Below are positions 23,131 to 46,649 of a stretch of 64,000 nucleotides of DNA, piece by piece. The notes below the pieces were generated by a model that made no database searches, was not told the origin of the DNA, and saw nothing but the letters and a program-made list of their open reading frames with translations. The position numbers were made by a program, and so were the translations under genes. This DNA comes from Callorhinchus milii. Taxonomy: Eukaryota. How positions within the stretch are numbered: the stretch's first letter is position 1; each line of letters opens with the position of its first letter. The DNA is taken from NCBI RefSeq assembly GCF_018977255.1, contig NW_024704742.1:40674001-40738000 (forward strand). The letters are read 5' to 3'.

Positions 23131-23388
23131 GAGAAGCAAATGATCATTCCCTTACGGTCCTGATTTAATGGCACTTATATGGTGGCTTAGTATGTGGCGT
23201 TCACGGGGTTAGCAAGATTCAGAACCCTTGAATCCTGCTGGTAACTAGATGGGTATCCACATCACCCAAAAAATTACTATAGCATGGTTCCAGTCACATT
23301 GTTAGAGAGTTGTTTCCACGGATATCCAGTTCTTTCTGAATCCTGCTTGAAGACAGCATACTTTCAACCCTGAAGCCTTATCAAACAA

Positions 23389-23799: not shown

Positions 23800-24170
23800 C
23801 AGGATAGTGTCTGGCATTCAGTAGCTAATGTAAGTGCAAATATACAGTAGTTATTTCACTTGAATTTGTTCAAAGGCTAGGTGTGGTTGAACATGACAGA
23901 AATGGGCTCATAATTGTGAGAATATATTTTCTAAAAACATACAAATTGAATCAGAATATTTTTGTAACCTTTAGTCAGTTGATCTACAAAGTAAAATGTA
24001 TGATGACAAGTACTATGATTTTTTTTCTCTAATCTACCTCTTAATGGTTTATAACAGTATACATACATCTGTCCTTCCTGGGGAATGGTCAGCAGGGTCT
24101 CTTTTGAGGTTCATTTGGCTCAGAGGTGCCAAACCGGTCAATGGAATATTTTCTTTTTTAAAAAAAGTCT

Positions 24171-24350
24171 AAATACTGCAGATGCTAGAAATCTGAAATA
24201 AAAATAAGTGGCTGGGAATACACAGCAGGTCAGGCAGCATCTACAGAGAGAGGAAAATAAGTTAACTTTTCAGGTCGATAAACTTTCAACAGAACAGTTC
24301 TGACAAAAGGTTATCAGCCTGAAACGTGCTGTTCTCTATTCCAGATCCTA
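24171..24350. mobile_element. Penelope-like element terminal relic with inverted, degenerate hammerhead-ribozyme cores
   Basis: Palindrome 24268-24324; CTGACAA..GAAAC on +, CTGTTGA..GAAA on -. Confidence 0.6.
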
Positions 24351-25974
24351 CGTATATAACATAAGAAATGTTAGACAAAAAAAGACCAAGGTCCGTCCAT
24401 CTAGTTCACCTTCCACCTTCCTGGCATGCACATATCCCCCAAACTACCTTTGTACTATATCCCATAATGTTATTTCCTAAAAAAAATCTAATTGTGTTTG
24501 AAAGAATCAATACTTCCTGCTTCAGCCATCTCCATAGGGAGCCTGTTCCCCAGGTTCACTATTCCCTCATTGAAATAGTGTTTGCGTAGATTTGTTTTGA
24601 ATTTACCCCCCTTCAATCATGAGTTAATTATGTCTGCAATACACCAAGGCACCAGTTAAAATGGTTCATTGGAATAACTTGGAAGAACAGGAACTATGGG
24701 TGCAGTGATCCTAATTTGACAAGCAGCTAGGAGCTTGCCAGTGTTGACAATGGGAAGCTGCACACTTTTAGTTGGTTGAACTCAATGTACTCTCTGGCAT
24801 CCCCAAGCCTTTACTCTTGCCAAACTACACCTTAAATAAATACATATTACTACTAATAGTACTAAATAGTGTGCGAGCAAATAAATCAAATCAAGTGAAT
24901 GGCTCATGGATGCATAATTTTATCAGGATTATAGTTATTTGTATTTCCTTGCATGTTTTTGTATTTTAAAAGCCCTGATTATGTGGTTGTTTATATGATA
25001 TAAATATTTGTACTTTTTTATCCTAGATGTCTTAAAATTAATGAGCTGTACTTATTAAATGTTTTAATTATCAATTCATTTGCAGTTGTTATTTTTTGTT
25101 GCACAGAATGATTACCGTGAAATGAATTTTAGATTTAAATAATCCTTGCATTTTATATAACAAGATTTACTATAATGTTTGTGATTGTGTATTCTGTAGG
25201 TAAAACAAAGCAGTCAATTTGCACATGGCAATGTTCCACAAAGAGTTATGAAATGAATGAACAATTCCTTTTGGGGGGATTTGCTGACTAGATACTGGAT
25301 GAAACTTTCTTCTATTTTGAATAGTGCCATGAGGTCTTCAACATCCATCTGAACAGACCGATGGGAACTTAGTTTAACATCTCATCCATAGAGTGGAAAA
25401 TGTAAAACATTTTTAATTGTTCATGCATAGAAAGTGTTTATTTAATGTAAATTGTCAGCGTGATCTTGCTGCTTGATGTAGTGAAATAATAACAAACATT
25501 CAGACACAGTAATAATATATATTAATATGATAGTATCACTGTCTATAATATGCCAGGAAAGTGATATGATTGCCTTATTACTGTAGGAAAGGGTACAGCA
25601 AAAAGCAACAAAACTGGAATGAAGCTTCCATGAGTTACTAGAAACTGAGATTATTGAGATTAAAAGACCTACTAAGATCTAACAAATTAGTGGAATTATA
25701 CACCCAACAGGCTTAATAGGATGAATGGTTTCCTCTTATTCCTGTTTTTCTTTGTTTCTAAGGTTCTTTGTTTCTAAGGTTCTTGATATAGTTTGTGAAG
25801 AAGGAAGCCAGGTTTGAATAGTCTGGGGCTATATGAAAATTCTGGAGTTTCTCTCTCCCTCTCTCACACACATTATACACTACACACATCGTATACACAG
25901 ACACAGAAATAATAGGCTAATTTGTAAAATAATAGTAAATAGTGAAGCCTGCAATGTATCTGAGGCCAGTCCTT

Positions 25975-26297
25975 CAGCACCCTCCCTATCTCTGTAACCT
26001 CCTCTCTCCCCAGAGCAGTACCTACTGCCTCCGCTCTACTGGTTCTGGCCTCCTCCGCGTCCCCCGAATCCTCCGTGCCTTCAGCCACTACGCCCTGAAA
26101 CTTTGGAACGCCCTCCCTCAACCCCTTCACCTCAACCCCTCGTTTCCCATCTTCAAGACACGCCTGAAGACCTTCTTTTTCGACCGCGCCTACGGTCACA
26201 GCCCTATCCCAGGCTCGACCTTGGGCTCCACCATAGTTAAGCGCTCTGAGACGCCACCCGGCATGGAGGGCATTATATACGTGCGAGTTGTTGTTGA
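25975..26297 (+). mobile_element. L2 3' end fragment
   Basis: PPYLCNLL...RAFSHYALKLWNALP...FKTRLKTFFF; (GTT)n tail. Confidence 0.85.
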
Positions 26298-27669
26298 CTT
26301 CACTCAGATACTAGGAGTCTACTTAGCTGCAATCCTGCTACATGGAAGTTAAACCCCAAGAGGGTTACTATTGGACACATCCGTAGCCTGCAAGGCTTGC
26401 TGTTTACTATTCATCCTTTTGTGAATCTTGCAAATGAAATCTTTGTATCAGCAGGTTCATCTGATATAATGGTGTTAATCTACAAAGTTGTACAATGAAA
26501 AGTGCCACCCAGAGCATTTTGGAGTTATGTGTTTGGACTTGCACAGAGCTTTGTGTATTTATAAACCCAACAACATTCCAATCACTTGGAAGTTTGTTAG
26601 TTTTTACTGAATACGCAAGATACTGAATGCAGAAGTCACAACTATTCAAAAACTATATTTTAACAATCGAGTGCAGATGGAGTGCAGGGTTTAATAGATT
26701 CATATTATGAAATAGGGATGTTTCCTTTGCATTTTGGAAAATAGACATAGACCAGGAGGTTGGATGATATAAGTTATTGCAATACTACTGAGGTCAATTC
26801 ATGCACTATTATACCTGAATTCAAATAACTGTTGTATTTATCTACACAGCGTCTTGCGTGTCTCATTCTATAAATAAGTCCTACAGACATGAGTCCTTTA
26901 CAGTTTCCTCTCGGTGTTTGGTGAATGCACACAATGCTTGATGTGTTTCTGTAGGAACAAACACTGCTTTCAAGTGAACAATAATTAGTTCAATGGGGAG
27001 CTACATTGTGGATTCATCAAACAGTTACCAAATATTGAATCGTGAAATGTGTTTGATGAAACGCATTTCATGTCAGGGAGACATCTCAAAGCATTTCACA
27101 ACATTCACAGTACTGTGTACACAGGTGAAGATGAGGTAACTGCATCTGGTGGGCTGATTCTGGAGAAAGCATGAGTTGTACCTTGTCCAATTGATGATTA
27201 ATTTTGTTTGAGCCTTGAAATTCAATGGCTTGCAGTGCTCTAGTATTTCAAGATATAACATTCACATGCCATCAGCAACCAAGTAGCCAAAAATACGAGT
27301 CGTAGCATTATGACGTTTTGGCCACAAAATACAATTCACTTTACAGTATATTCTATGAAGCGCTTTGAGACGTCTCGAAGATGTGATAAGGCGCTATATC
27401 AAATGCAAGGATTATTATTATAGCAAACTGCTTCAAAACTCAAGTAATTTGCTCATCTGGACTCTTTTTCTGCAGAGTTTATGCCTGGAGCAGTCAACAG
27501 CATATTGTTTGTTCAATTTAACTCTATTCATTTAGCAAGGTGGGAATGTAAAGAATTATAGCAACAAACTGCCTAATTCATCTGTTTTGCAGGGTTACTG
27601 CACATGGCCTCAGGAAAGTCCCTTTCATATACACATTACCTGAGATAAACAAGTTACATTTATTAATCC

Positions 27670-28295
27670 TGCTTGGCTCCCATCAGCGCCTCTACATCTC
27701 AGGCACTGACAGTATCACCATCCATCGATGTACTCGCCACCTCACTGAGCCAGTACAGAACCTTAGCCTTGTTAGACCCTCAACTATCCTTTATACCATG
27801 AGCAGTTCTGACATCCCCCACCTCCACAATATCGCCCGGCACCACCATTGCCTTTCCCCTCAGGCCTCAGAGACCCTCATCCACGCATTCATCACATCCA
27901 GGGTCAATGACGCTATCTCCCTGCTTGTCGACCTTCCCGATTATTCCCTCCACAAGCTGCAGGTGATTCAGAACTCTGCAGCTCGTGTTTTCTCCTGCAC
28001 CAGGCTCCCCCGCCCTCGACCGGCTCCACTCCCTCCGCTCCACGGGCTCCGATCTGCTCCATGCCCAGGCCCGCCCGGGTCTTCAACCTTTCTGCCCCCA
28101 TACTTTGGAACTCCATCTCACAGTCCTTGACCTCGTCCCCTCCCTCGTCTCCTTCAAAGCTTGTCTCAAGACACGACTCTTTGACCACGCCTTCGGTCAC
28201 CCTCCTACCCCTACCCTCCCTGCCCTCCACCCCGCCTGATCCAAACCCCCATGAAAAGTGCTATACAAATGTAATTTGTTGTTTTTTTTGTTGTT
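27670..28295 (+). mobile_element. L2 3' fragment
   Basis: ETLIHAFITSR, LQVIQNSAARV; tail. Confidence 0.85.
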
Positions 28296-29719
28296 ATGAA
28301 TGGAAACACTTGATTTAAATACTTTTTCTGTGTTTTCAATAGAGTTAACTACTCTGGTACCAATGTCACACCATGATTCCTGGGTGCGATGGTACCACAA
28401 AAGTGGTATAATGTTTACTCTGGGCGTTTGTGAGATCACCTTTCAAGTGTTTTCTCACATCAATCTAGCTTTGGCTGGCAGGAGATGGTGAGACCAGTGT
28501 CATGTGATGTTGCCCATGAACAAGAAAGCTGTAAACATAAACACAGCAGATATGGTCACTTAATAATCATCTGATTCTGATTGTCCATCTGATTCAGAAC
28601 TCCAGTGCTCATATCCTCACCTCACCCATGGCTCCCTATTGCAGAACAAATCAATTTCAAGATCCTCACACCCACCTTCAATCACTTCATGCCATTGAAC
28701 CTCTCTAACTTGATCACACTCACTTCTCTGCCTATCCCCTTCACTCAGGCCGTCTGCATGTCCTCCGATCCCTCCGTTCCACCATCAGCGACTGTTCCTT
28801 CAGTGACTACTCCCTGAACCTCTGGAAGTCCCAGCCTCAATGTCTCTGCCTTGCTCACTCTTTACTCATCTTCAAATCATACTAAAGAATTTCCTTTTTG
28901 ACCGTGCCTATGGTAACCTCCCCTTTCTCTCTGACTCGGGGTAAACCTTATCATTATTGAACATTCCAAGACTCTACCCCATGTGAAGGGTGCCAAATAA
29001 ATTTTGTTGCCATTTGTTGTTGCTATCCACGGTTTACTAAAGCATCAGTCGCTACCTTCAGGAGAGAAGAGTTTTTTTAAAAAAGAGTAGATGCAGTGCT
29101 GAGGTCGCTCAGGGAAAAAAACTACAGTGGTTGGAGTCAAACCTTGAACACAGAAAGATGATTGTGGTTGTTAGGGGACCATCATCACTGCTGCAGAAGT
29201 TCCACAGGCCACCTCCCTCTGCCTTTAATGGCACAACCATCACAGAGGTTCTCCATTATCAACATCCTGGAAATCACCAAGATGCCTGGCAGCTACATCA
29301 GCACTGAGCTATAAGAGCGGGGCAGAGGTTAGCTACTCTGTGTCACCTCAGAGTCAGTTCAGCTCTCCTCAGCCATACAAATCACTTCATACCTTGATGC
29401 TTACACCCCACTCCTCTACACACCCCTTTGCTCAGCTGGCTCTGGCCACCTGCACGTCCCTCATCCCCTGCGGTCCACCACTGATAGGCATGCTTTCAGC
29501 CACTACGCCTGGGAACTATAGAACTCTCTGCCTCAATTCTTTAAAGAAAAAGCTCATCACCACTTCTCTCAAGGCAACTAAGGATGGGCGATTAAACCTG
29601 ATGCATCCTGAGATGCGTTTTTTTAAAAAAAATGTTAGAATTGATAAACTTATGAATTATTGGAATTTATGGAGACTAGACTTTTAGCATTTCTTGTTTC
29701 ATTGAGATGGTCAGATTCT

Positions 29720-29930
29720 TTCCTGATAATGCTGACTTCCTGTTGTTATTATCCTGTCATTGGTTCTCATCCCTATGAGTGACACAAAGATCCTCTTATC
29801 ACACATGGAAATGTATGACTCATGCACTTTGGTGTGTGATTGGAGAACATAAAGTATGTTCACAGATTGTCACTCAAAGTGGAGCCTGTCAAGAGTATAA
29901 AAGGCAGAGTATTTTGGATTGGGTGTATCC
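29720..29930 (+). promoter_or_regulatory. Candidate promoter of the ADP-ribosyl cyclase gene
   Basis: TATAAAA 29896-29902, ATTGG (reverse CCAAT) 29839-29843, AP-1 TGACTCA 29816-29822, ETS ACTTCCTG 29735-29742, GATA sites; good Kozak gcagcATGG at 29988. Confidence 0.6.
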
Positions 29931-29987
29931 TTCAGCACTGTAGTGTTAACACAGCCAGTGTCAAACTGTAGGAATAGAAGCTGCAGC

Positions 29988-30024
29988 ATGGAAATGCTTC
30001 CTCTAAACAGTCACCTGTCTTCAG
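29988..30024 (+). CDS. Cyclase candidate exon 1 (MEMLPLNSHLSS)
   Basis: Kozak ATG downstream of TATA; CAG|gtaaag donor, phase 1 matches the next exon. Confidence 0.62.
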
Positions 30025-31289
30025 GTAAAGATGATTCAAAATCACCAGAAGTTAAAGAAATTCTTTGCAATGAGTTGCAAAATCCTCGGACTGTCCAGCA
30101 TCCTGGGATGCCTTTTCGACGTAAATGCTGCTATGCAAGTGTAATTTGTTGTTGTTGTTGTTGTTGTTGTAAGTTGGCTTTTATTCCAATTCTATTCTCC
30201 TACTGATGTGTAAAGAATTTTCCTATAGATCACTCTGTGATGTCTAGAGTTGTTGTTGAAAGTGTGTTACTTGCTCTCCTATTCCTGTTCTAGATTTTGT
30301 GTATAATCCTTGCATTTGATATAGTACCTTGTCACACAGTGAAAATGTCTCAAAATACTTCACACAATGTTTTTATTGTGAAGTGTATTGACTGTATTTG
30401 TAAGAGAATGCAGCAAATAATTTCTGCACAGCAATGCCCCACAAATAACCAGGAAAGTCAATGCTTAATTTTATCTGAAGGATTGTTGCCCAGAACACTG
30501 GGACAACTGCCTTCTCTATGCAGATAGTGCCATCGGTATCTTATCATTTATCTGAACCTGCGTTTAAATTCATAACTGCTCCAACAATAGAGTGTTTGGG
30601 AGTGTCATTACACAGGAATTTCAGTTTACACAATGACTTCAAAGTCCTCTTGTTGGATGTCAACCCATAATCTTCTGACTCAGAGAGTGCTATTAGTTGA
30701 ACCCAGTTGACATAAATGTGGATTTTAAACATACAGTGCTTCAGTATATGACTCAATAGATTTATCCGTGCAGCCTGATCGGTTAGTGCTGCAATTGGCT
30801 TAGTGTGCCTGAGTTAAGAAAAAGAAAATCGGACAGGATTCTTATTCCTGATTGCTGTAATACAAGAACCCACGTGGTTATTCTTTGACCTCTCCCCCAA
30901 CTCCCACCTTGTCGATTCCAAACCTTTCCTGTGTCAGTTTTCTCTTTCGTTTTAAAGTTACAGAAATGTAATCTATTTTTTTTCTTGTGTACCATATGTA
31001 TTCTAGACATTCCCTGCATCTGATATAATCTCCAAACACTTCACCGTGACAGCTATTCACAACACAAGCACAGCTATCCACAACACAACTTGGCAAGATA
31101 TGTAGATACACTTTAGGGTGTGAAATATCAACCACTCTAAACATCATGGCGCCAAGTCATTAGATTTGTCTTGTGAAGAAGAAGTGCGAGGACCAGGTAA
31201 CCCACAAAATATAGTATGTCTCAGAGTTTCTACTATAAGGTTTCACTAAATTTGCTCAAGGAATGTAAGCTCAGGACTTTAGGAGCTAC

Positions 31290-31612
31290 GGAGTCCTGTA
31301 GCTCAGTGGTTAGAGCACTCGCTTTGCAAGCGAGAGACCTGCGTTCAATTCCAGGCAGGTCAGGGCGAAACCGTGGGCAAGTTTCCTTTCTCCACACGCC
31401 TAATAATAATCCCTCCAAAACCCCAAACAATAATAAATTGGTCATTTTCAATTTACAACTGTCTGTGGGACATTGCTGTGCGCAATTGGCTGCCGCATTC
31501 GCCCACAAATATACAGTCAATTCACTTTACAGTGTGTTCTGTGAAGCGCTTTGGGACGTCCTCCCAACGTGAAAAGCACTATATCAAATGCAAGGATTAT
31601 TATTATTATTAT
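31290..31612 (+). mobile_element. Full-length SINE (short subfamily, L2-type tail variant)
   Basis: Complete head, body and tail. Confidence 0.9.
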
Positions 31613-32282
31613 TTTGTGTCCTATGCTGTATAATGCTGTTTGGAGAATTGTAATTGCTGTTCGTTTCCATTGCTGGTACCTTGGAAGTAAACGCAATTAC
31701 TTTTAAAGAGCATATATGAGCTATGGAAAACATACTAATATTTCACCCACAAATATACACTTTACAGCTTATTCAGTGAAGCGCTTTGAGACGTCTAGAA
31801 GACGTGAAAAGCGCTATATCAAATGCAAGGATTATTATTATTATATCAAATGTAAGGATTATTATTGAGATTATTATTAAATAATTATTATTAATATTAA
31901 TAGTGGCGAGCATCTGTTCAGTTGTCTGTCTGTGCAGAACTTAGGCTTTGCATGAGGTCTCCAAATCCCTCTACAATGTTTCCTGCAAATAATCTTCCAT
32001 TGATATGTTCACCTACAAATGCACTATATTTCAGTATATTTCACAGTAAAAGCTTGTGACATATTTTGAATTATCTTGGCATAAGGCGCTATATCAAATA
32101 CAAGAATTGTTATTATTATCAACTGTTTACATGTGCTGACATTAAGAGCTTTAGTTGTCATGTTAGTCAGTACACTGATTTCTTCCAGGGCTATTACTCT
32201 ATCTCTGCACCTGATGCATATCATTTCATAGGAGTAAGCCTTCTTATTCATAGCCTGAATTTATTTTCCATGAAAATTAAAG

Positions 32283-33235
32283 CAACAACAAGATTACATT
32301 TGTATAGCGCCATCCCAAGGCGCTGGACAGCATACAGCATTTCAGACCCAAGCTGGGGTCAGGGAGAGAGAAAGGAGTGGGGGGGAGGGGGGTGACCAAT
32401 GGCATGGTCAAAAAAGAGGGTCTTGAGGTGGGACTTGAAAGAAGCTAAGGAGGGGGCGGAGTGATTGGGGAAGGGAATTCCAGAGGTTGGGGGCAGAGTG
32501 GCTCCACCAATGATGGGGAGGGTGGGTCGGGGGGTGTGGAGCAGACCGGAGCCGGCTGAGCGGAGGGAGTGAGCAGGTTAGGAGGTCGCAGAGGTAGGGT
32601 GGGGTGAGGTCATGGAGGGCTTTGTAGGTGAGGACCAGAATCTTGAACTGGATGCTCTGAAGGATAGGGAGCCAATGGAGTCGGGCGAGAATTGGGGAGA
32701 TGGGGTCATGGAGTTTGGTGCGGGAGAGGACACGGGTTGCAAAGTTCTGGATTATCTGCAGCCTGTGGAGGGAGGAGCTGGGAAGGCCGACAAGCAGTGA
32801 GTTTGCATAGTCAAGTCTGGAGGTGATGGAGTTTCAGAGCCTGAGGTGCAGAGGCGCTGGCGTGAGCCAATCAGGAGGCCTCAGTCTTGTTCACATTCAA
32901 CTGTAGGAATTTTGCCTTATCCAGGACTTGATGTCCGACAGGCAGTCTGTCAGGAGTTGAGGGTGGAGGCAGAAAGATAGAGTTGGGTGTTATCCGCATA
33001 CATATATGGAAGTTGACCCCATGTCTGTGGATGATGTCACCAAGGGGGAGCATGTAGATATTAAAGAGGAGAGGGCCAAGGTCAGAGCCCTGGGAGACGC
33101 CAGACATGACAGTGCGGGGGCTGGGGGAGAAACCGTTAGAGGCAACAAAGTGGAGACGGTGAGAGAGATAGGATTTGATCCATGCAAGGGCAGGTCTGCG
33201 AAGGTTAAGTAAAGAGGAGAGGCGGTGCATGAGGA
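32283..33235 (-). mobile_element. L2 LINE fragment
   Basis: GVSQGSDLGPLLFNIYMLPLGDII; tail at 32283. Confidence 0.88.
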
Positions 33236-33306
33236 TGGGCGCATTTATAGCTCACAAGGAAAACAAATACAGAGCAATTTAACATAAAAAACATTTCTTT
33301 TGTTAG

Positions 33307-33460
33307 GTGTGCTGCTCCTTGTAGTCATACTCTTAAACTACACAGGTAGATACGACGGATCCAACATTGCTTGGACAGGAAGAGGAACAACTGCAAACTT
33401 AGAAGAAATCGTGATCGGGAGATGCAACGACTACATTGGATTAAAAAATCCGGCAGCAGG
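33307..33460 (+). CDS. Cyclase exon 2 (GVLLLVVILLNYTG...WTGRGTTANLEEIVIGRCNDYIGLKNPAA)
   Basis: ttag|GT...AGG|gtaaa; homologous to the CD38 WSGPGTT...RC segment. Confidence 0.9.
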
Positions 33461-33477
33461 GTAAATCAGTCTGTAGA

Positions 33478-33740
33478 TAATAATAATAATAATGTCTCAA
33501 AGTACTTCACGGGATATACTGTAAAGTCTGGTGACTGTGTATTTTATGGGCACATATGACAGCCAATTGTGCACAGCAGTGTCCCACAAACAGTGGTGGA
33601 TTGAGTGACCAATTTGGAGGGATTATTACCTCCAGAAAGCGATCTGCCTATCGACTAACAAGTGGGTTCCTACTTACTGCTGGGTAAACAGAGACTTGTG
33701 TAAGTTTAAGGAAACTTGCTTATGGTTTTGCCCTGCCTCA
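33478..33740 (-). mobile_element. SINE, long subfamily, partial
   Basis: Contains the 'gcagtaagtaggaaccc' insert block. Confidence 0.75.
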
Positions 33741-34021
33741 TCAGCAATGGCATGGTAAAGGATAACTTGGTATCTTTTTTCATTGGAAACTGATCAAGGA
33801 TTCATTACTGACCTGGATTGGAAGACCTATCGTAATATATTGAAATCTGCAGATTATACCAAGGTGGGGGGGAACTTTGGAATTAGAGGAGACAGAAAAG
33901 TTTTTTCAAAGAGATTTTCATAAGGTATGGAGATGCGCTGATAACTGGCAAATACATGTTTAATACAGTTAATTGCAAGGCAGCAATTAGGAAGTAAGAA
34001 TAGTTTCCCGATTATGTTACG

Positions 34022-34413
34022 TGGAGTCATGTAGGGTGTTGGTTAGAGCACTCACCTTGCAAGTGAGAGAATCCAGGTTTGAGGCGCTCTGGGACGCTAC
34101 CCTGCGTGAGGGGCACTACATAAATGCAAGTTGTTGTTGTTGATTCCTAGGCAGGGCGAAGCCATAGGCAACTTTCCTAACACCACGCCCCTGTTTACCT
34201 AGCAGTAAGTAGAAATCTGGTTGCTAGTCAATTGGCATAATAATAATTTGGTCACTCAATCCACGACTGTTTGTGGAACACTGCTGCCTGCAATCGGTTG
34301 CCGTGTTTTGCCCACAAAATATACAGTCAATTCACCTTACAGAATATTCTGTGAGGTGCTTTGAGACATCCCAACAACATGATAAGGCAAGATATCAAAT
34401 GCAAGGATTATTA
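34022..34413 (+). mobile_element. SINE (long subfamily) interrupted by an L2 tail at about 34080-34141
   Basis: tRNA head split within the B-box region by a 'gcgctctgggacgct...gttgttg' tail. Confidence 0.75.
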
Positions 34414-34594
34414 TTCATTTGTCCTGTGTTTACTGCCCACTCTGTTTTTTGTTCATCCACTTCAGCTTTCATTCATGGTAAGGTGGTACACCACCCCTGC
34501 CACAATAGGAAACATGTCTACTCCATGGATGGGATGGAATTTGCCGAGGGGAAAAGGGAAAATGTTCATCATTCACCATGTCAAAACAGAATGA

Positions 34595-35500
34595 GGCAGC
34601 AATAAAAAAGGCAAACAGGATGTTGGAATATATTGTCAAATCCCGTAAAATCCTCCTCAGTCTGTACAGTTCTGGTACAAATTGCTCTGAGAATACATCA
34701 TATATTCTGGTCACCACGATATAAGGGGATTGCCCAGGCTCTAGAGTGGGTGTAGAGGAGCGCAATTAGGATGATCCCCAGTGCTACAAGCATGAGCTGT
34801 AAGCAATGATTAAAGAAGATGAGTCTCTTAGGGTTAGGTTGAAAAGCGATGTCTCAGAGGACAACAACAACAACTACTGCTTGCATTTATGTAGCATCCC
34901 AGAGGGTTTGACAGTGGCGAAACACGACTCCGGACCTTTATAGAGGTGTATAAGATTTTAAATGGGATGTGGAGTTCTGTAGGTCAGTAGTTAGAGCACT
35001 CGCCTCGCAAGTGAGAGACCTGTATTCGATTCCCAGAAGGGCAAAATGTTGGGCAAGTTTCCTTACTCCACATGTCTCTGTTTATCTAGCAATAAGTAGG
35101 AACCTGGTTGTTAGTCAATTGGCAAATCGCTTTTCCAAGGATAATAATTCCTTCAAAAAAAATAATAAATTGGTCACTCCAATCCATGACTGTTTGTGGG
35201 CCACTGCTGTGTGCAAAATTGGCTGCCTCATTTTGCCCACAAAATATACAGTCAATTCACTTTATAGTATATTCTGTAAAGTGCTTTGAGAGCGTAAACT
35301 CAGAACAATATTTTCAGGTGCATTAAGACAGCAGAACTGGAGGACACAGAGTTTAATTGCAAAAAACTATTTAAGGGTGGGTACGAGGAAGTATTTATTT
35401 ACCCAGAGGGATATTAATAACTGGAAGAGGTGATTAAGAAGTCGGTTTGAGGCTAGGACAATGGCTTCATTTTTTTAAAGCAAGTGTGGTGTTGTGATGG
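34595..35500 (+). mobile_element. Old CR1 fragment with a nested long-type SINE (34971-35291)
   Basis: KANRMLEYI-like CR1 sequence that resumes after the SINE. Confidence 0.65.
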
Positions 35501-35686
35501 GAGATCAGTAGAGTGAGTATTCTGGAGAGATGAGATAAAATGCCTCTCTTGTGGTTTTTTGAATAGGGTAAAAATAATGAGTCACCATGCTCTAGTATTT
35601 CAGTATGATACTATCGTATGTTGAAAATTATGCATGATTATAATAAAATTGACTAACCGAGTATTTGGTGTTTCACTGTGTTTTAG

Positions 35687-35816
35687 GAAGAAGAATTGTA
35701 CACTGCTGTGGCAAACCTTGAAGAGTGTGTTTGCTTCCAAAGACCCCTGTAAAATTACACAAGACGACTACAAACCATTTCTGACCATGGCTGAACATGA
35801 TATCCCATCCGGCAAG
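35687..35816 (+). CDS. Cyclase exon 3 (KKNCTLLWQTLKSVFASKDPCKITQDDYKPF...IPSGK)
   Basis: ttag|G...AAG|gtta, 130 nt. Confidence 0.93.
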
Positions 35817-36133
35817 GTTAGCGTTGAGTTGTTTCACAAATCATTTGATAAAATATTCAAACAATATCGTATCCCTTTATGTTACTATATTTTATGCAAT
35901 AGTTCAATGATAAAAGGCTGATGGTGAAATGTGTCACGAATGTGCACAGGACCTATACAGTAATTGTGAATCCATAAAGTGTAAAATAAATTCTAAGAAC
36001 TATTAACCGAACTGAAAAATTAATATGACTATGGAATTTCCCATTTCGGGGGCTCTTTATTAATAACAAATTTTAGTACTGGATTGTTAATGAGTACAAG
36101 ACTATTTCAGTCTTTTAATTGATTAATTCCCAG

Positions 36134-36269
36134 AGCATATTTTGGAGTCAGACAGGAGAACTCACTCGTCAGTATGCTGATATTGTCAAGAATGTTATGC
36201 CTCTGGAGTCGACCCTGACAGGTTATATGCTGAATGGTTTGAATTGGTGTGGGCAGCGCTCTAGTTCAG
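36134..36269 (+). CDS. Cyclase exon 4 (SIFWSQ...PLESTLTGYMLNGLNWCGQRSSS)
   Basis: ccag|AGC...CAG|gtaag, 136 nt; TLEDTL-type signature. Confidence 0.94.
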
Positions 36270-36593
36270 GTAAGCCAGTCACATTTTACATTCAAAACTG
36301 CCAAATCATAGGAACATAGGAACAGGATTAGGCCATTCAGCCCCTTGAGCCTGTTCCACCATTCTATTAGATCATGGCTGATCTGTACCTCAACTCCATT
36401 TACCCGCATAAATGCTATTTAATTGTAATTGAATAATCCCATATACTTTCAGAAGCAATGGACTAATTGTCAGAAGAGTTTGTAACAGTTTAAATGGTCA
36501 TGGTTACATTTTAAATGTCATTTTAAATGATATTCCTTGCATTTGAAATAACACCTTTCAAAAAAGGCATTTCCAAACGCTTCATACAATATA

Positions 36594-36700
36594 CAGGGTG
36601 ACCAAAAAGTCATGATACCATTATAATGCCTAATAATCCTTTAAGAAATAAAAAGAAAGATAATAGGGCGGCTGAAAAATAAGACGTTTTGGTCACCCTG
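36594..36700. mobile_element. 107-bp Tc1/mariner-type MITE
   Basis: Perfect 14-bp TIRs CAGGGTGACCAAAA / TTTTGGTCACCCTG, TA on both flanks. Confidence 0.85.
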
Positions 36701-36849
36701 TACTTGAAGTGGCAGCCAATTTGTGTGCTGTGATGTTCTAGAAACAGCCCTAAAGTAAATGACCAGTTTCATTTTATCAGACAACTGTACATCTCACTGT
36801 GGATCGAAAACCGACTTTATCACCCATTTAATATTGCCTTCTGGGTCAG

Positions 36850-37675
36850 CCTAAGTTCAGTTGAGAGCATTCTTGTTTCTGAGTCAGAAGGTTGTGGGTT
36901 CAATCCCCAATGCCATGTTGGGGTTATGCTGCGTTGATGGAGGTGCTGTACTTTGACTGATGTTCAACTGAGGTCCCATCTGCCTATTCATGTGAACTTT
37001 AAAGATCCCATGGCATGATTGAAAAGAGAGGGGAGTTTCTACCACTCTCCTGGCCAACAATCCCCCTAAATAAAATTGGTCATTCACTTCATCGCTATTT
37101 GGAAGACACTGCTGTGCACAAATAGACTGTTGCATTCACCTACAAAATACACAGTCATTACGTTTAGAATATTGATTTGTTCCAGAAGGATCATGAAAGA
37201 GCAACGATGATGATTCTGGGATGTAAGGTTTTAGGTTATGAGGAGAAGCTCAAACAGTTGTATTTGTTTCACTGCAGAAAAAGAGATTAAATGTCCTATA
37301 AAATGCTGGCAGGTATATACAATAAATATATTCAGCAGGAGCAGAATGGTACCGCTTGGATTATTTATTATTTATTTTTATTTATTTATTATTTATTCAT
37401 CCGGATCTGTACCTGTCCTTATTTCTTCAATAGCTCAGCTCTGGTAGAATTCTCTACTCTGTGTCAGAAGATTGTAGGTTCAAGTTCCGCGTTGGGACTT
37501 TGAGCTTTAGTGCAGCTGGAAACCCTAGTGCAGTGCTAGTGGAGTGCTGCATTGTTGGATTCCAACCCTCGGATAAACCGAGGTCCCAGACGTCTGCCTG
37601 TACAGAGGGACATTAAAAATCCCATGACATTATTCAAATAGAGAAGAACGTTACTCCCAGCCTTCTGGCCAATGA
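36850..37675 (+). mobile_element. Two old DeuSINE-like relics (about 36850-37170 and 37430-37675)
   Basis: 'gtcagaaggttgtgggttca' head; 'tgctgc..tgttgga...gaggtccc...gatcccatggca...ctggccaa' core. Confidence 0.65.
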
Positions 37676-37728
37676 TGTTTTGCTTAATAAGGACTGTTTT
37701 CAAACCTTGAAATATTTATTCATTACAG

Positions 37729-37811
37729 AACTGAATTATGAAGTTTGCCCAGCATGGAATGAATGTGAAGAAAATGCTGCAAAATCCTTTTGGAGATCAG
37801 CGTCGGTAGTT
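37729..37811 (+). CDS. Cyclase exon 5 (LNYEVCPAWNECEENAAKSFWRSASVV)
   Basis: acag|AA...GTT|gtaag, 83 nt. Confidence 0.93.
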
Positions 37812-37909
37812 GTAAGTGTGTGTTTATCTGAAAGAAATGCAGCTAGACACTACTTCTTGTAGTACTGTTGTTCCAATACACTGTTGTAATTGCATTATGT
37901 AATTCTCAG

Positions 37910-37986
37910 TATGCAAAAAAAGCCAGTGGAGAGGTAAAGGTGGTACTGAATGGATCTTCGCAAACAAGAGCTTTCAGAACTGAAAG
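37910..37986 (+). CDS. Cyclase exon 6 (YAKKASGEVKVVLNGSSQTRAFRTE)
   Basis: tcag|TAT...AAG|gtaaa, 77 nt. Confidence 0.93.
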
Positions 37987-38029
37987 GTAAAAACACATAA
38001 CAAATAAGGCCATAATCCAACCATTTCCT

Positions 38030-39285
38030 CAAGTCCCCCTCCTCCCGCATTCCCCTCCCCTCCAACATCTCTTACCACGGTTGGAAAATACTTCTCTCCC
38101 AAATCCCTTACAAAAGTCCTTTCATCCTCCCTCTGATTTTCTACCTGCAGTGTTCCCGATGCAGCCATCAAGCTGCTAAATGATCAACTTTCTTCGTCTT
38201 TCAATTGCCATTCCCCCCCTGAAGTCCACGACAAGTCTCCCACCCACCTACTCCTACTGGTATAATAGTCACCTGCACACCCTTAAATTCAAAACCTGGT
38301 CACTCGATCACAGATGGTACAAAACCAGCCTCACGTTTCCTCACTTTCCTCAATTATCTCCTTTTTCTTTCCAAGGTGCTGGAGCGTGTTGTTACTTCCT
38401 AGCTTTGCTCATTCCTTTCCCGCCACTCCCTCTACAAACATGTCCAATTGAGTTTCCGTGTTTCCCAGAGCACAGAAACAAATTACATTGTGTCCACCTC
38501 CTTCTGACCAGGCCTTCCTCTGTCTCCTCATCCTCCTTGACCTCTCTGCGTCTATGACACTGTCGACCATTCTTTCTTTGTCCGCCTCCTCACCTCTCAG
38601 CTCAATCATCACGGTCCTGTCAGTGCCTGGTTCAAATCTTACCCGTCATCTCCACTTCGTATCCACAAACAGCTTCTCCTCCAAACCTCGCACCATCTTG
38701 TGCAACATTCCTCAGGGCTCTGTCCTTGGTCCTTCAATATCTACATGTTCCCCCCCTTGCTGACATCATCCGCAGACAGAGGGTCAACTTCCACATGTAT
38801 GTGGATGACACCCAGCTCTATCTCTCTGGCTCCACCCTCGATTCCAGGTCAACTGCTGTCCTGACAGAATGTCTGTCAGCCATCAAGTCCTGGATGAGAG
38901 CTAACTTTCTTCAGTTGAATGTCAACAAGACCGAGGCCTTCCTGATTGGCTCACGCCAGTGCCTCCACACCTCGGGTGCTGACAGCATCACCATCCATGG
39001 ATGAACACTCCACCTCATTGACCTTCAACTGTCCTTTCTCCCCCACATCCGTGCCATGACCCATTCTGTCTTCCCCCATCTCCTCAACATCTCCCGGATC
39101 TCCAACTGCATCTCCCCTCAGGCCGCTGAGACCCTTGAGGCTCGATTAAGCTAACTCCCTGATGTTGGTCTTCCAAACTCTTCCCTCCACAAACTGTAGA
39201 TCATTTAGCACTCTGCAGCTCATGTCCTATCCCAAGCTCCGTGACCCTATCACCTCATCCTCGCCCAGCTCCATTGGCATCCCAT
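38030..39285 (+). mobile_element. L2 LINE fragment (RT region)
   Basis: [38 protein letters not shown]. Confidence 0.88.
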
Positions 39286-40001
39286 AGTTTTCCTGATTTA
39301 AGGAACCGGTCAGAGGGCTCCATTCATTTGGTTGAATATTAGGAAAAAACAATTGATTACCAGGAAGGCAGTTAAGGCCAGGCCACTAGACTATGGAAGG
39401 ATGGTAGGATGGGAATTCTGGGTGGCTGAGATCAAATGGGCTGAAGGGCCTTCTTCACCTGATAGGTTAGTTCCCAGGTTTGCCAGTTTGCTGTTGATCT
39501 AATCAAGAAAAGAGGGAGTTTCATCTCTGAGTTCTGGAAGATTATTAACAACTGTTGACATTTCCTCACTGGAAGAATTAGTGTAGAGTTTAGAAGAAAC
39601 TTTCTTGTCCAGAGAGTTGGTAGAACAATTGAAATCTTTCACTCAAAAGATTGCTTTTAAAAGAGCCAACACAGACTCGATGGGCCGAATAGTCTTCTTC
39701 TGTCCTGTAAATTTCTATGGTTCTAACATGGATAGCTTTGCCACAAGAGGATGCTGTGGCTGACACCATAACATATAAAAGGGAATGGATAAATAATTGA
39801 AGAGGAACATAATCAAAGTGCATAGGAAAGAGCAAGGAATATGTTATAGGAAATGAAATGCCAGGTGATTATGAGACAAGTGACTGATAATATCCTTCCA
39901 AACTAATCTAAAGACACTACCCTTGATCATTGTGTATTATGGGTGTTTATCAATTCATTGCACCTTACTGCTATTGATTATTTGTTGCTTTCTGTCACTA
40001 G

Positions 40002-40094
40002 CATTTTTGGTAGCATTGAACTTGGAAATCTAGACACCAATCGGATTTCTTCAATCCAACTCTGGATCATGGATAACCTTTCCGGGTCTGATAA
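40002..40094 (+). CDS. Cyclase exon 7 (IFGSIELGNLDTNRISSIQLWIMDNLSGSD), catalytic Glu
   Basis: ctag|C...TAA|gtaag (phase 2), 93 nt; FGSIE corresponds to CD38 FGSVE226. Confidence 0.93.
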
Positions 40095-40349
40095 GTAAGG
40101 TTTTGCACTTTTATTACATAATGTGGGATAACACGCAGAGCAACAATACTTTGTATCGTCATTGGAAAATATTTCCAAGCAAAGCACAGGCAACTGAACC
40201 TGCTGGTGTTCCATCCAACTGTGCTGTGGAGTGTTCGATGTAGGTTTGCAGATCCAATTTGCCACATAGAAAGTTACTAAGTGTAGCTATTATAGAATGA
40301 TACTAGAAGATAACTTACAGGAAAGAAGGGCACAAAAAATCAAGGCAGA

Positions 40350-41102
40350 GTCACCTTGAACTCCTTTCGCACACTCCTAACGGACGTTCACAAAGATGTC
40401 TTCATAAGAAGTTGTAAGAAAACAAGGTTTGTCTCAAGACCTTTTTGGCCATGCCTACGGACATCTTCCTATCTCCACCCCACCCTGCCCCCATCCCTCT
40501 TGAATCCAAACCCCAGCTGGGGTGCAAACCCTTCCCTGTGCAATGCCTTGGGACGTCCTCCCTATATGAAAGGTGCTTTTTAAATGCAATTTGTTGTTTT
40601 TGTTGTTTTACCAGTGACCTGGCCAATAATTCCGCAAATAAGCCTCAAGAAATGACTTGATTATATCTAGAACTAAAATTACATTATATTTGGTGGAAAA
40701 GTAACAGTGCAACCAACTCAAATGAGATTTTTTAACATAAAATGCATGTCGCATGTGTTCCATAAATACCTGACTGTCAGCTCCCTCCGCTCAGTGGCCT
40801 CTGGTCTATCCCATGCCCCTGCCCTGCCTGCTCCATCATCAGTGGTTGGGCCTTCAGCCTCTCTGATCCTACCCTTTGAAATTCCATCCCACAGAGCCTC
40901 GTCCACTCCCCTTGCCTCCTTCAAGGTCCGTCTCAAGATCCTCCTCTTTGGTCACCCTCCTACCCCTACCCTCCCTGCCCTCCACCCCTCCTGATCCCAA
41001 TCCCCAGCTCAGGTCCAAATCCTTGACTGTCCAGCGCCTTAGAACATTATCCTGAAGTGAAAGGAGCTATACAAATGTAATTTGTTGTTGTTGTTGTTGT
41101 TG
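40350..41102 (+). mobile_element. Two L2 3' tail fragments (about 40350-40606 and 40770-41102)
   Basis: L2 3'UTR plus (GTT)n tails. Confidence 0.75.
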
Positions 41103-41387
41103 GTCATTTCACTTCATGGCTGTTTGTGACAATGCTGTGCGCAAAATTGGCTGCCGTATTTGCCCACAAATCACATCTTCACTCCACTTTACAATATATC
41201 CTGTGAAATGCTTTGGGTCCTCCTGACAGGAAAGGTTTATACCAAATGCAGGACATCCTCCTGACATGAAAGTTGTTGTAATGTCAACTGCAAGGATTAT
41301 TTTGATTACTATCAAAGCTGCAAGGGCACAATATTTGCCATTTAAATATAAGCTATGCTGTTTGGTTTAGTTTGATGATTATAATAT

Positions 41388-41670
41388 AATAATAATCCTT
41401 GAATTTGATATAGCACCTTATCACATCTTCGAGATATCTCAAAGAGCTTCGCAGAAATACACTGTAAAGTGTAGTGACTGTATGTTTTGTGGATGAAACG
41501 CAGCAGCCAATTGCGCATAGAAGTGTCCCACAACCAGTCGTGGGTTGAGTGACCTCATCATTATTATTATTGTTTTGGAGGCATAATTATCCCTGAAAAA
41601 GCAACGTGCCAATTGACTAACAAGCAGATTCATACTTACTGCTAGCTAAACATGTGTGTGGAGTAAGGAA
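41388..41670 (-). mobile_element. SINE, long subfamily, 5'-truncated
   Basis: Tail and body match the family. Confidence 0.8.
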
Positions 41671-41741
41671 TGAATGATTATAGTCGGTTCTTAGCAACAA
41701 CACAGAACACGGAAATCACCATTTCACTTTTGCTTTTGCAG

Positions 41742-41828
41742 GGAATCCTGCGGTGTTGGGAGTATTGCACAATTAGAAATCGCTTTGAAACACAAGGGTT
41801 TCAAATTCTCCTGCATTGATAATTACAG
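41742..41828 (+). CDS. Cyclase exon 8 (ESCGVGSIAQLEIALKHKGFKFSCIDNY)
   Basis: gcag|G...CAG|gtgta, 87 nt. Confidence 0.92.
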
Positions 41829-42682
41829 GTGTAGTATCTCACTAGATTAACACACAAGTCTTTGAAATACTGGATGTATCTAATTTTGGTGGAATTCTAT
41901 CTCAATAACATTTATAGTAAATTTTCCATGACTTCAGTATTTTCAGAAGTGGTGTTTGCAAAGAGGAATTGGATACTTGGGGTACTGCGGACCTGCCTGG
42001 CTCAGATAATTCAGACTATCCAAACCACTGCAGAGGGTTGATTCCATTCTGACACCTGTTCCCAAGCATATGAGCTTGGAGCCGTTTCAGCTCCAAGGAG
42101 GCCTCAATTATATATTTACCTCCCCCCACTCCCCCCCACCCCAGGAGGATGGGTCTCTCAACACGTTTGAAGAAATTCCTTTGATTACAAGAGAGGTTTG
42201 GATGAAGAAGTTCCTTTGTCCAATTGATCTTGTTCTTCCAGAATACAAACCCAAACACCTTCCCATTTCAGCATCAAGCTGTTCCTCAAACAAGTCCAAT
42301 GTCCTGGGCTCAACACCCTTCGTGGTAACCTTTCTGTTTGTTAATTAAGTTGATAGGATTGTTACTTTAGACTTGAAATCTGTTATTATTCTGACTAATA
42401 GGGGTGATGATTTTCATGAAGTTGGTAGGGTTGCCTTTGACTGTGGCATTTCCACCAATGAAAATTCTGACAATCTGAAAATTAGCACCAATAATAATTA
42501 TTTGGTTAACCAGATTCCTTTCTATTGGGCCTGAATTCACCAGATGTACCTTCCCTGACCAAACATTGGAGGATTCTTGTCTGATGTTAAAGCAGCAAAA
42601 TATTTAAAATAGCTGTGGTGGAAAACTGTATATTGTTCAATATTGCTCAAGAAAAACTAAAAAAATCTCTTTTGAATGATAG

Positions 42683-42752
42683 GCCTGTCCAACTCATCCA
42701 ATGTATTTGGATGCCTGAACACAAATCCTGCAATATCTGCCCAAAGAACTGA
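42683..42752 (+). CDS. Cyclase exon 9 (PVQLIQCIWMPEHKSCNICPKN*)
   Basis: atag|G...TGA; conserved QC...P...SC pair. Confidence 0.9.
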
Positions 42753-43051
42753 CATCCACGGAGAATACTTTTCTCTGCCATTCCAATTCTACGGTCAAAA
42801 ATACAAGAGAAAGCTAGAAAGATAGCGATCCATCCAATTGTGATTCGTCTGCATTGTATAACCTGAAAATTAGAGTGTAATTCTGAGAGTATTATTTCCT
42901 ATACACTTCTGGGGGAAAAAAGCAAAGCTACAAGGTAAGAATGATCATCTGACAGGGAAATAATCCAGAGAAGGATTGTGTTGCATTGAGGTTTGCACGT
43001 AGGGGTGAAAATCGGTGAAATATTTACATGTGTCCATTTGTACTTCCAGCT

Positions 43052-43057
43052 AATAAA
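43052..43057 (+). terminator. Candidate poly(A) signal of the cyclase gene
   Basis: AATAAA 300 nt after the stop, followed by T-rich sequence. Confidence 0.5.
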
Positions 43058-44881
43058 CTTGTATTTTCAGTTAAATTATCCTCCATGTTCTCACTTATTT
43101 TTAAGGTTTTAGCTATTTGAAATGGGTCCTAATTGAATCAGTTCTCAAACAGCCTGAAACTTAGATGTAGTATTAAAAAGGGAGTCGCATTTTCCAAGAA
43201 CAACTTTGTGACAAATCAGCTACTAACTATTCTTGCATGTCCAAATGAGTTAAGCAGCATCACAGTTCAATGATCTAGAAAAGAACAGAATAGAGTAGAT
43301 CTAATTCCTCAACGTCAGCAACATACATTTTTGCTTTTGGAAAATGTTCAGTGATCAACTGACTGTTACACACCTTTGTGCCATTGCATACTTTCTGAGT
43401 ATGAATGGGTAGATGTTGAGAAATGTTAAATACTAGTTTAGTTACCTGTACACCAAGGTAGATAATTATTTTTTAAAAATACCAAAATGACCAAAGGCTT
43501 GCCGAAGGGTAAATTAATTGATCTTATTCTCCAAGACTATTTTCTGCTGCAAAGCAATGCCTTTCATGAATGCAGCAATGATTTGCTCAGTTTCAAACAG
43601 GATTTTTAGATTTTTCAACCTGTAATGACTGGTTTAGCAGTTCCTTTTTGTTGGCCACGTGAGCTGCCAAATGGGCCCCAATTGCACACTTGATCAACAG
43701 ATGTACTATAACAATTTTGTAGGATTATTACAGTTCCAAAGCACCTCCAGCTATTTAGATTTAGAAATAATTCCATATTTTAGTTATTCAATTGTTGCAT
43801 TTCCAGAAACCACCAGTCCCACTTATTTCATTTTTGAAGCACCTTACCCTGGAGTATTTCTGCACTGCTGAAGAATGCATAATAATGTTCCGTTAAATAA
43901 TTTTTAATAATCCTAACATTTAATATAGCTCCTTTCACATCAAGAGGATATCTCAAAGCCTCACAGGATTTACTGTAAAGTGTAATAACAAACTATATAA
44001 GCAGATAAGATTTATTACTCTTCCTGGTAACCAATCTCAGTTGTTAACTCCCCTTTCTGTAAATGAATACCTATAAATATACAGTCAATTCACTTTACAG
44101 CATATTCTGTGAAGCGCTTTGAGATGTCAAGAAGACGTGAAAAAGCGCTATATCAAATGCAAGGATTATTATTATTATTATTATGTGGGTTCAAGTCTCA
44201 CATCAGAACTTGGAGTTCACGTAATCTAAAATAGACACACCAATGCAGTGCTGCACTGTTCAAGGTGCCGCATTTCGCCTTGAGGCATCCTCCCAATGTG
44301 AAAAGTGCTGTACAAAGATTATTATTATTAGGGTAGTATTGCAAAGTTCTTCACAGAATTTAGTGCAAAGTATGTTTATTCAGACTGTGTATTCTGCAGA
44401 CAAACGTGGCAGACAATTTGCACACAGCAATGTCCCACAAACAGCCATGAAGTGAATGACCACTTTTATTTGGTGGATTTGTAAATGCAGTAACATGCAA
44501 TTTATTGTTGTTGATTGTTGGCCAGAACACCAAGACAAACACCCTTCTCTTTTTGAATTAGTGTCATGGGAAAAAACATCCACCCGAACCGGCAGAGCTA
44601 GCTGAACTAGTTTTAATGTCAGTTTTCTACAGGTTTTATAAAGTTGTTGAATTAGGACAATCAAACCAAATTAAGTGTTTTCTGCGAAAGTGCCTTACCC
44701 CCTCCCTCCATGTAGGAATATTCTTTGTGCTATTTTAATTCAGATATTTAAGAGAAGGATGTTCAAAAATTAATTAAACAAAACAAATGTTGCCAAAGCA
44801 GCAACAAGGTGCCACCATTAGAGGGCACCAGACACTTTCTTCATAGTTAAAAGGAAATGAAGTGGCTGCTCTATAGGAACT

Positions 44882-45196
44882 ATAATAATAATCCTTGCAT
44901 TTGATATAGCGCTTTTCACATCGGGAGGACGTCCCAAAGCGCTTCACAGAACACACTGTAAAGTGAATTGACTGTTTATTTGTGGGCGAACGCGGCAGCT
45001 AATTGCGCACAGCAATGTCCCACAAACAGTCGTGGATTGAAAATGACCAATTTATCATTGTTTTGTTTTGGAGGGATTATTATTAGGCTCTGTGTGGAGG
45101 AAGGAAACTTGCCCAAGGTTTCGCCCTCTGCCTGGAATTGAACTCAGGTCTCTCACTTGCAAAGCGAGTGCTCTAACCACTGAGCTACAGGACTCC
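44882..45196 (-). mobile_element. Full-length SINE (short subfamily, L2-type tail variant)
   Basis: Close reverse complement of 31290-31612. Confidence 0.9.
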
Positions 45197-45504
45197 ATAC
45201 CGTGGGAAATGTGGGAACATTGTAAACATTGTAAACATGTCGATTGTAGGGTCTCAGTGGGGACAGTATTTCAGAGAGAATGAAATGGGTAAGGAAGGAA
45301 AGATGATGCAAACAATTTCAGGATTGTACAGAAAGGGATCAGAAATGGGATATGTAGAAATCTTGCTTTCCTTCAAATACACCCTTCCTCTGCTTCATTT
45401 CATGTATACAGGGATCAGAAAGCTAGAGTTTAAACAGGTGTGGGTTTTCAAAGGAATGCCATTGGACAGATGATTCCTATAGCTTATAACTATATATAGC
45501 AACT

Positions 45505-46390
45505 ATAGTTAAAGCACTCACTTCACAAACGAGACGACCTGGGATCGATTCCCAGCAGGGCAAAATATCTGGCAAGTTTCCTTACTTCACACGCCTCTGC
45601 TTACCTACCAGTAGGTAAGAACCCAGTTGTTAGTCAATTGGCAGATCACTTTTCCTGGGTAATAGTTCCTTAAAAAAAGAATAATTTGGTCACTCAATCG
45701 TGGAGTCCTGTAGCTTAGTGATTAGAGCACTCTCCTCGCAAGCGAGAGACCTGGGTTTGATTATCGGCAGGGCGAAACGTTGGGCAAGTCTCCTTACTCC
45801 ACACGCCTCTGTTAATCGAGCAGTAAGTAGGAGCCCAGTTGTTAGTCGATTGGCGGATCGCTTTTCCAGCAGGGTAATAATTCCTTCAAAAAAAAATAAT
45901 AATAATGATTTGGTCACTCAATCCACAAATTTTGTGGGACACTGCTGTCCGCAATTGGCTGCCGCATTTCGCCTACAAAATATACAGTCAATTCAGTTTA
46001 AAGTCTATTCTGTGGAGCACTTTGAGACATCTCGAAAACGTGATAAGGCATTATATCAAATGCAAGGATTATTATTATTATTATCGATTCCCAGGCAGGA
46101 CGAAACCTTAGGGAAGTTTCCTTATTCCACACGCCTCTGTTTGCCTAGCAGTAAGTAGGAACCCAGTTTTTAGTTGATTGGCCAATCGCTTTCTGGGGGT
46201 AATAATCCCTTCAAAAAGCACAAATAAAATAAAAATCACTCAAAGCTCAACTGTTTGTGGGACAGTTCTGTGCACAATGGCTGCCGCTTTTCGCTCACAA
46301 AATATACAGTTAATTCACTTTACAGTATATTCTGTGAAGCACTTTGAGACGTCTCAACAATGTGATAAGGCGCTATATCAAATGCAAGGA
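45505..46390 (+). mobile_element. Three head-to-tail long-subfamily SINE units
   Basis: Units about 45505-45700 (no 3' half), 45702-46083 (full), 46084-46390 (5'-truncated). Confidence 0.85.
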
Positions 46391-46649
46391 AACAAGAAAA
46401 CAAATAGCGAGCAAGGCACCAGTGGGAAAACATCTCTTTTTTTCCAAGTTTTGACAGTTTGGGATTTGTGTTTACAGAATTCAAAGTGAATCGTGTATTT
46501 TAGCCCCCGATGTTGACAGTTTCCAGAAAGGTTTGTGATTGCAAGGGAATGGAGGCATGTGAAAGAGCAACAAGGTTCAGGAAATTAGATCAACTCAAGA
46601 GACCTTAATGGTCTTTCTGTGTTCCCATGCAATTTGCTTTATCAAGAGC

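Follow-up and report, generated by a model that had tools for sequence, protein, structure and literature searches.

Vertebrates are described as having two ADP-ribosyl cyclases, CD38 and BST1, each of which is fixed to the cell surface. A 64,000-nucleotide stretch of the elephant shark genome (Callorhinchus milii, contig NW_024704742.1, positions 40,674,001 to 40,738,000; hereafter the window) contains a gene of this family, and the locus raises the question of whether its enzyme is held at a membrane at all. We find neither of the two mammalian membrane anchors in the chimaera protein or in its shark and ray counterparts, and because both are lacking, the enzyme is probably released from cells. 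In outline, the protein looks like a BST1 at its front and a CD38 at its back. All positions are window coordinates on the (+) strand unless marked.

The gene itself is intact. The rebuilt model has nine exons (Table 1) separated by eight introns, all GT–AG, and its 867 nt encode 288 residues and a stop with no internal stop codon. A search with exon 4 retrieved P0001, the Callorhinchus RefSeq entry XP_007887195.1 (‘ADP-ribosyl cyclase 2-like isoform X1’), at 98%. This entry represents the same gene: it has the N-terminus of the window product, shares exons 1–8 and is identical over the first 265 residues except one, codon 140 in exon 4, where Leu in the window is Met in P0001 (an allele or assembly difference); its last exon is the one at 41938. 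P0001 matches PF02267 with 284.9 bits against a cut-off of 25, and this score, together with the RefSeq agreement, indicates that the model is not a product of chance. The window therefore holds an intact and already annotated ADP-ribosyl cyclase gene, as the initial annotation, made from the sequence alone, had claimed, and the rebuilt model is confirmed. The RefSeq annotation gives no topology, and the AlphaFold model of P0001 (mean predicted local distance difference test score 57.5) falls below 50 over residues 1–42, so that it is uninformative on the N-terminus. The product has an odd number of cysteines (11), ten of which are conserved in the family (52, 68, 85, 146, 159, 165, 240, 261, 273 and 282) and by homology would pair as five disulfides; sequons lie at 23, 67, 194 and 231.

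To place the N-terminus, we applied plain Kyte-type hydropathy (KD) thresholds to the best 19-residue segment before the domain, leaving out the partial or chimeric entries P0176, P0286 and P0231. The comparison includes c1, the cartilaginous-fish lineage of the window gene with 15 shark and ray orthologs, and c2, a second elasmobranch paralog (P0185 and P0186). The sole strongly hydrophobic stretch of the window protein is residues 14–22 (best nine-residue KD 4.0). Its best 19-residue KD is 1.92, with an uncharged span of 13 residues, which lies within the signal-peptide range of the BST1-side entries (0.15–2.38, n = 88) and below all 26 named CD38 anchors (2.96–3.69, uncharged spans of 20–27 residues); the c1 orthologs run from 0.89 to 2.14. 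With a KD of 1.92 against at least 2.96, a CD38-type type II anchor is absent, in line with the earlier description of a core of about nine residues and no transmembrane anchor. By the −3/−1 small-residue rule for signal peptidase, all 15 c1 orthologs have a cleavage site (the core was mis-picked in one), many of them as xLA before the mature start. The anchorless layout is conserved in c1 across cartilaginous fishes, for which secretion is predicted.

A signal-peptide-only appearance without a tail was also seen in the CD38-side entries P0033 (lungfish), P0025 (dragonet) and P0040, with lungfish P0032 borderline at 2.73; three of these four carry the CD38-type extra cysteines.

The C-terminus offers no glycosylphosphatidylinositol (GPI) signal. 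A tail, defined as a KD of at least 1.7 over the C-terminal 12 residues, is present in 64 of the 88 BST1-side entries and in none of the 15 c1 orthologs, and the window protein scores 0.57. Exon 9 contains no GT after the codon for Cys282, the last conserved cysteine, and past exon 8 none of the 58 pyrimidine-rich acceptors leads to a terminal exon with a GPI-like tail. The annotated alternative last exon is also non-hydrophobic, and it replaces the final disulfide pair, Cys273–Cys282. The earlier statements that there is no donor before the stop and no GPI tail both hold; the initial annotation had overlooked this alternative last exon, as well as the probable alternative donor at 31197 described below. 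Among BST1-clade models, those from elasmobranchs (P0185 and P0186) and sterlet (P0238) end soon after a CxC motif and lack a GPI tail, which may reflect real loss or a missed exon; eel and tarpon models in this clade have the tail.

Contigs from four runs (X1–X4) were mapped on 26500–46400. Their RNA status was guessed; they contain some mRNA, because spliced GT–AG joints are present. These joints connect exons 5 and 6 (depth 363), 7 and 8 (456) and 8 and 9 (357 in X1), the last of which also occurs in X3 and X4; spliced contigs bridge exons 2–3 and 3–4 as well. At the last intron the unspliced form reaches a depth of 8.8, against 357 for the X1 joint, and the stop-containing exon 9 is spliced in three of the four runs. 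Contigs reading unspliced through the stop (42681–43050 in X1 and 42722–43006 in X2) have ends that adjoin the AATAAA at 43052. The spliced contigs favour the stop-containing exon 9 as the last exon, and contigs of this kind neither prove a transcript end nor exclude rare forms. Very high-copy repeats resembling short interspersed nuclear elements, with many copies in the introns, swamped read depth.

The initial annotation had cautioned that the topology hinges on exon 1. This exon is backed by the RefSeq model, by a TATA box (Table 1), by the good Kozak context of the first ATG (A at −3, G at +4), by the likeness of its product to shark N-termini, in which the second Met is invariant, and by its rank among alternatives. 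It is the second ATG, at 29994, to which the start Met of the shark proteins corresponds in the alignment. Exon 1 takes ranks 1 and 2 among 27 candidate first exons in 23150–33290, with a modest margin, in a ranking blunted by the fact that 5 of 14 reference peptides were picked at an internal Met. One of the 27 candidates reaches anchor-level hydropathy; it was rejected, since it consists of poly-Cys encoded by a microsatellite and its donor is weak.

On the evidence of the trees the window gene is not a BST1 ortholog, and its ‘BST1-like’ label does not stand as a statement of orthology: it is the other elasmobranch paralog that lies in the BST1 clade. In both trees, one of 53 and one of 37 rows (the smaller drops 16 of the 53, including P0171, which had been trimmed to 31 residues), the window gene and the c1 orthologs form a clade of their own (support 100/99), and c2 falls inside the BST1 clade (100/99), which does not include the window gene. 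The free tree places c1 weakly as sister to BST1 (86/78), and a grouping of c1 with the CD38 side is not rejected (approximately unbiased test, p = 0.228). The characters are mixed, and several of their states are probably ancestral. Like CD38, the window protein stops shortly beyond its final pair of cysteines and has FWS, equivalents of Glu146 and Glu226 and a C-terminal CxxC, but it lacks the type II anchor and the C119–C201 disulfide. Like BST1, which gives its best PDB match (1isf, 214 bits), it has a signal-peptide-like N-terminus, a Pro before the Glu146 motif and no C119–C201 pair; unlike BST1, it has no GPI tail or GPI exon, keeps Glu146 and FWS, and has Ile where BST1 mostly has Phe. 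Of the 25 non-mammalian CD38-side rows that could be parsed, 22 have the C-terminal CxxC (15 of 17 parsed named CD38 rows with a second parser); it occurs in 1 of 84 tetrapod BST1 entries and in none of the 15 elasmobranch orthologs. Seven of the 30 non-mammalian CD38-side rows are unnamed and were placed by tree or likeness. Exons 3–9 resemble the last seven CD38 exons. The window gene has nine exons against eight in CD38 (PMC6368836), the extra intron lying inside the signal peptide.

The active site is preserved, and its details point to NAD hydrolysis rather than cyclic ADP-ribose (cADPR) synthesis as the main predicted activity. Glu212, Trp111 and Trp174 are invariant in 12 of 12 aligned rows, and we take the two tryptophans to be those that position the substrate; Ser178 and Glu132 are also kept (residue counts leave out P0176 and P0286). 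Glu132, the equivalent of CD38 Glu146, stands in a TLEDTL motif that opens with Pro rather than Thr, and Glu is the commonest outgroup state at this position (25 of 39). At the cyclisation position the window protein has Ile207, and Phe is found there in 71 of 86 tetrapod BST1 entries. The C119–C201 disulfide is absent from the window protein and from all 15 c1 orthologs; among CD38-side rows, 24 of the 30 non-mammalian and all 5 mammalian ones have a Cys at the C119 position. Hydrolysis is favoured by Glu146 and by Ile in place of Phe at the cyclisation position, and the C119–C201 disulfide is tied to low cyclase activity, its absence favouring cyclase (PMC6368836). Two of the three markers thus point to an NAD glycohydrolase (NADase). 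Of the earlier proposal of an NAD+-consuming, cADPR-producing enzyme, the second part is weakly supported, given Glu146 and Ile207.

The explanation that we favour, and consider reasonably likely, is that the c1 gene encodes a soluble glycoprotein of the secretory pathway that is released and acts mainly as an NADase. The signal peptide would take the chain into the endoplasmic reticulum (ER) and then be cut off, five disulfides would form, and the sequons at 67, 194 and 231 would be glycosylated. With nothing to hold it, the enzyme would pass into the extracellular fluid, where Glu212 would cleave NAD+ (and NADP+); ADP-ribose and nicotinamide would be the main products and cADPR a lesser one. 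Extracellular NAD+ would be cleared and the ADP-ribose/adenosine route fed, which is the job of membrane CD38 in tetrapods. Two chains may be linked through the spare Cys285, a dimer idea raised for the spare cysteine of the pit-viper and chicken enzymes (PMC6368836).

Several observations weigh against this explanation. The missing C119–C201 pair makes the product mix uncertain, and 24 of the 88 BST1-side entries also lack a tail, which implies that a GPI exon can be missing from database models. No canonical −3/−1 site lies 2–13 residues past the core of the window protein, which also lacks three residues at the place of the shark cleavage site; the missing canonical site is the main gap in the case for secretion. 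The short core might therefore stay uncleaved in the chimaera as a minimal type II signal-anchor and leave the enzyme membrane-bound like CD38, in keeping with the CD38-like features elsewhere in the protein (FWS, Glu146 and the C-terminal CxxC) and with residues 4–22, which carry no charge apart from one His. We regard this as unlikely: the KD of 1.92 is far under all 26 named CD38 anchors, no basic cluster precedes the core, and the orthologs have clear cleavage sites. Non-canonical cleavage is possible in the chimaera protein after Thr25, Gly26, Gly30 or Ala34, and the Ala34 site is one residue off the start of the solved BST1 chain. A soluble enzyme might also fail to leave the cell, as does a soluble relative, the sea urchin SpARC1, which has a predicted signal peptide and is soluble, glycosylated and ER-luminal, but is not secreted from oocytes (PMC1949048). 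Retention of this kind in the ER or granules, or tethering at the surface through Cys285, to which the odd cysteine count lends some weight, seems to us quite improbable. SpARC1 has a hydrophobic C-terminus that was proposed as its retention signal (PMC1949048), whereas the window protein has neither such a C-terminus nor a KDEL-type ending, and the cysteine of the CxxC is kept in none of the 15 elasmobranch orthologs.

The 5′ transcript evidence also counts against the favoured explanation. The joint between exons 1 and 2 is not among the 15 joints listed (there are 1499 further joints), and the one long contig from the 5′ side shown for X1 agrees with use of an upstream donor that brings in no start codon. 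This contig, record 2 (1338 nt, depth 175), fits 30306–31194 and then departs, and its length is exactly that of 30306–31196 plus exons 2, 3 and 4 and 27 nt of exon 5. The arithmetic implies a second donor at 31197, which this abundant contig probably uses, running unbroken from intron 1 into exons 2–5. The modelled mRNA could then be a minor form, the main transcript using the donor at 31197 (unproductively) or a small cassette, or encoding an N-truncated protein. Such an arrangement appears very improbable: the depth of 175 for record 2 is a mean over the contig, against 357–456 at the downstream joints, exon 1 is annotated and has conserved shark counterparts, and assemblers can prune a short first exon. 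The 30306–31196 stretch contains no in-frame ATG, its frame is open only from 31124, and five possible in-frame cassettes within it add acidic residues and no anchor. Judged from its reading frames, the stretch offers no source of an anchor, though some share of the mRNA may be unproductive. A possible 33-nt in-frame cassette with a weak acceptor (31164–31196) lies at the site of a 12-residue insertion in many shark and ray models.

The window protein differs in several respects from known soluble members of the family. The Aplysia ADP-ribosyl cyclase belongs to the same family (166 bits), lacks the extra disulfide and is soluble (PMC6368836, PMC6788384), but the window protein is of vertebrate lineage and has Ile instead of the cyclisation-favouring Phe. 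The snake-venom NAD glycohydrolases are soluble vertebrate CD38-family NADases with Ile at the cyclisation position and, in some, a spare C-terminal Cys; they are, however, CD38s that have a hydrophobic segment of 25 residues and lack a signal peptide (PMC6368836), whereas the missing anchor of the window protein is encoded in the gene. The initial annotation had suggested a third, soluble vertebrate configuration. The signal-peptide-only layout of all 15 elasmobranch orthologs speaks for this, but the venom CD38s are already soluble, though without a signal peptide. As far as we searched, the anchorless layout has gone unremarked: in the literature searched we found no paper describing the lineage, a subject that a 2014 review of cyclase evolution (PubMed 24896331) may treat, and the available part of PMC9033130 adds nothing on fish. 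Chondrichthyan genes have been called BST1-like, with two in tandem in catshark and skate and one in elephant shark, and the words ‘GPI’ and ‘signal peptide’ do not occur in the text seen of that paper, figures and supplements aside (PMC8669677).

Table 1. Features of the cyclase locus in window coordinates
Feature	Position	Strand	Remarks
TATA box	29896–29902	+	92 nt before first ATG; sole TATA[AT]A[AT] match in 29000–33400
Coding exon 1	29988–30024	+	12 codons + 1 nt; n-region of signal peptide; joint to exon 2 not among joints listed
Intron-1 stretch in one spliced contig	30306–31196	+	Ends at probable alternative donor, GT at 31197
Exon 2	33307–33460	+	9-residue hydrophobic core, c-region, cyclase-domain start, Cys52
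Exon 3	35687–35816	+	Cys68, Cys85; CD38 C119 position without Cys
Exon 4	36134–36269	+	Trp111, Glu132 (CD38 Glu146 equivalent), Cys146
Exon 5	37729–37811	+	Cys159, Cys165, Trp174, Ser178
Exon 6	37910–37986	+	Joint 37811>37910, depth 363 in X1
Exon 7	40002–40094	+	Catalytic Glu212 (CD38 Glu226 equivalent); Ile207 at cyclisation position
Exon 8	41742–41828	+	Cys240, Cys261; joints of depth 456 and 357 in X1
Alternative last exon, RefSeq isoform X1	41938–42052	+	38 residues, non-hydrophobic; joint not among joints listed
Exon 9, coding part	42683–42752	+	Cys273, Cys282, extra Cys285 (CxxC), stop; joint in X1, X3, X4
3′ untranslated region	42753–43057	+	AATAAA at 43052; contigs unspliced through stop
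Long interspersed nuclear element reverse-transcriptase fragments	57621–57998, 62664–63953	−	Pfam frames

Upstream of the cyclase gene, 3 of 72 frames match Pfam domains, namely CEP76 peptidase-like and CEP76_C, in exons at 18368–23127 (+) that we read as the 3′ end of CC2D2A. They are probably the 3′ part of that gene, which would end ∼6.8 kb upstream of the TATA box of the cyclase. A further exon close to 15685–15960, which has no database match, presumably belongs to the same CC2D2A-like gene; one upstream exon was searched against Atlas and PDB and had no match. Adjacency to a CC2D2A-like gene is a further likeness to BST1, and CD38 lies near CC2D2A and PROM1 (PMC6368836). We found no second cyclase in the window: none of 178 tblastn matches lies outside the gene, 12 BST1-side queries gave 5 of 92 matches outside it, all with E of at least 0.17, and a BST1-side hidden Markov model found nothing outside it below E 2 in 2866 frames. 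A single copy in the chimaera is reported in PMC8669677. Downstream of the gene, 2 of 95 frames pass the Pfam cut-off, both of them reverse-transcriptase pieces. Three of the database models compared, P0011 (a duck BST1–CD38 read-through), P0028 (two cyclase domains between an N-terminal anchor and a hydrophobic tail) and P0008 (from the epaulette shark, ending in a long Pro/Gly repeat), are probably annotation artefacts.

These results correct the ‘BST1-like’ label of the gene, but their surprise is limited by an ordinary enzyme chemistry and by the existing annotation. A signal peptide without any anchor, kept in a lineage that spans chimaeras, sharks and rays, would give the family a third gene-encoded layout. 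More tentatively, cartilaginous fishes may lack any membrane-anchored CD38-family enzyme, the window gene being the secreted counterpart of CD38 and the type II anchor having arisen later, in bony vertebrates, through a longer, uncleaved signal peptide. If so, the signal-peptide-like forms P0033, P0025 and P0040 would be leftovers of the secreted state, and the elephant shark, with its one reported gene (PMC8669677), would be a jawed vertebrate with all of its CD38/BST1 activity as a free extracellular enzyme. It would then offer a natural test of the need for the receptor role and membrane position of CD38. The layout is relevant to the timing and manner of origin of the CD38 anchor, and to the long-standing puzzle of why an enzyme should face outward when its products act inside cells.

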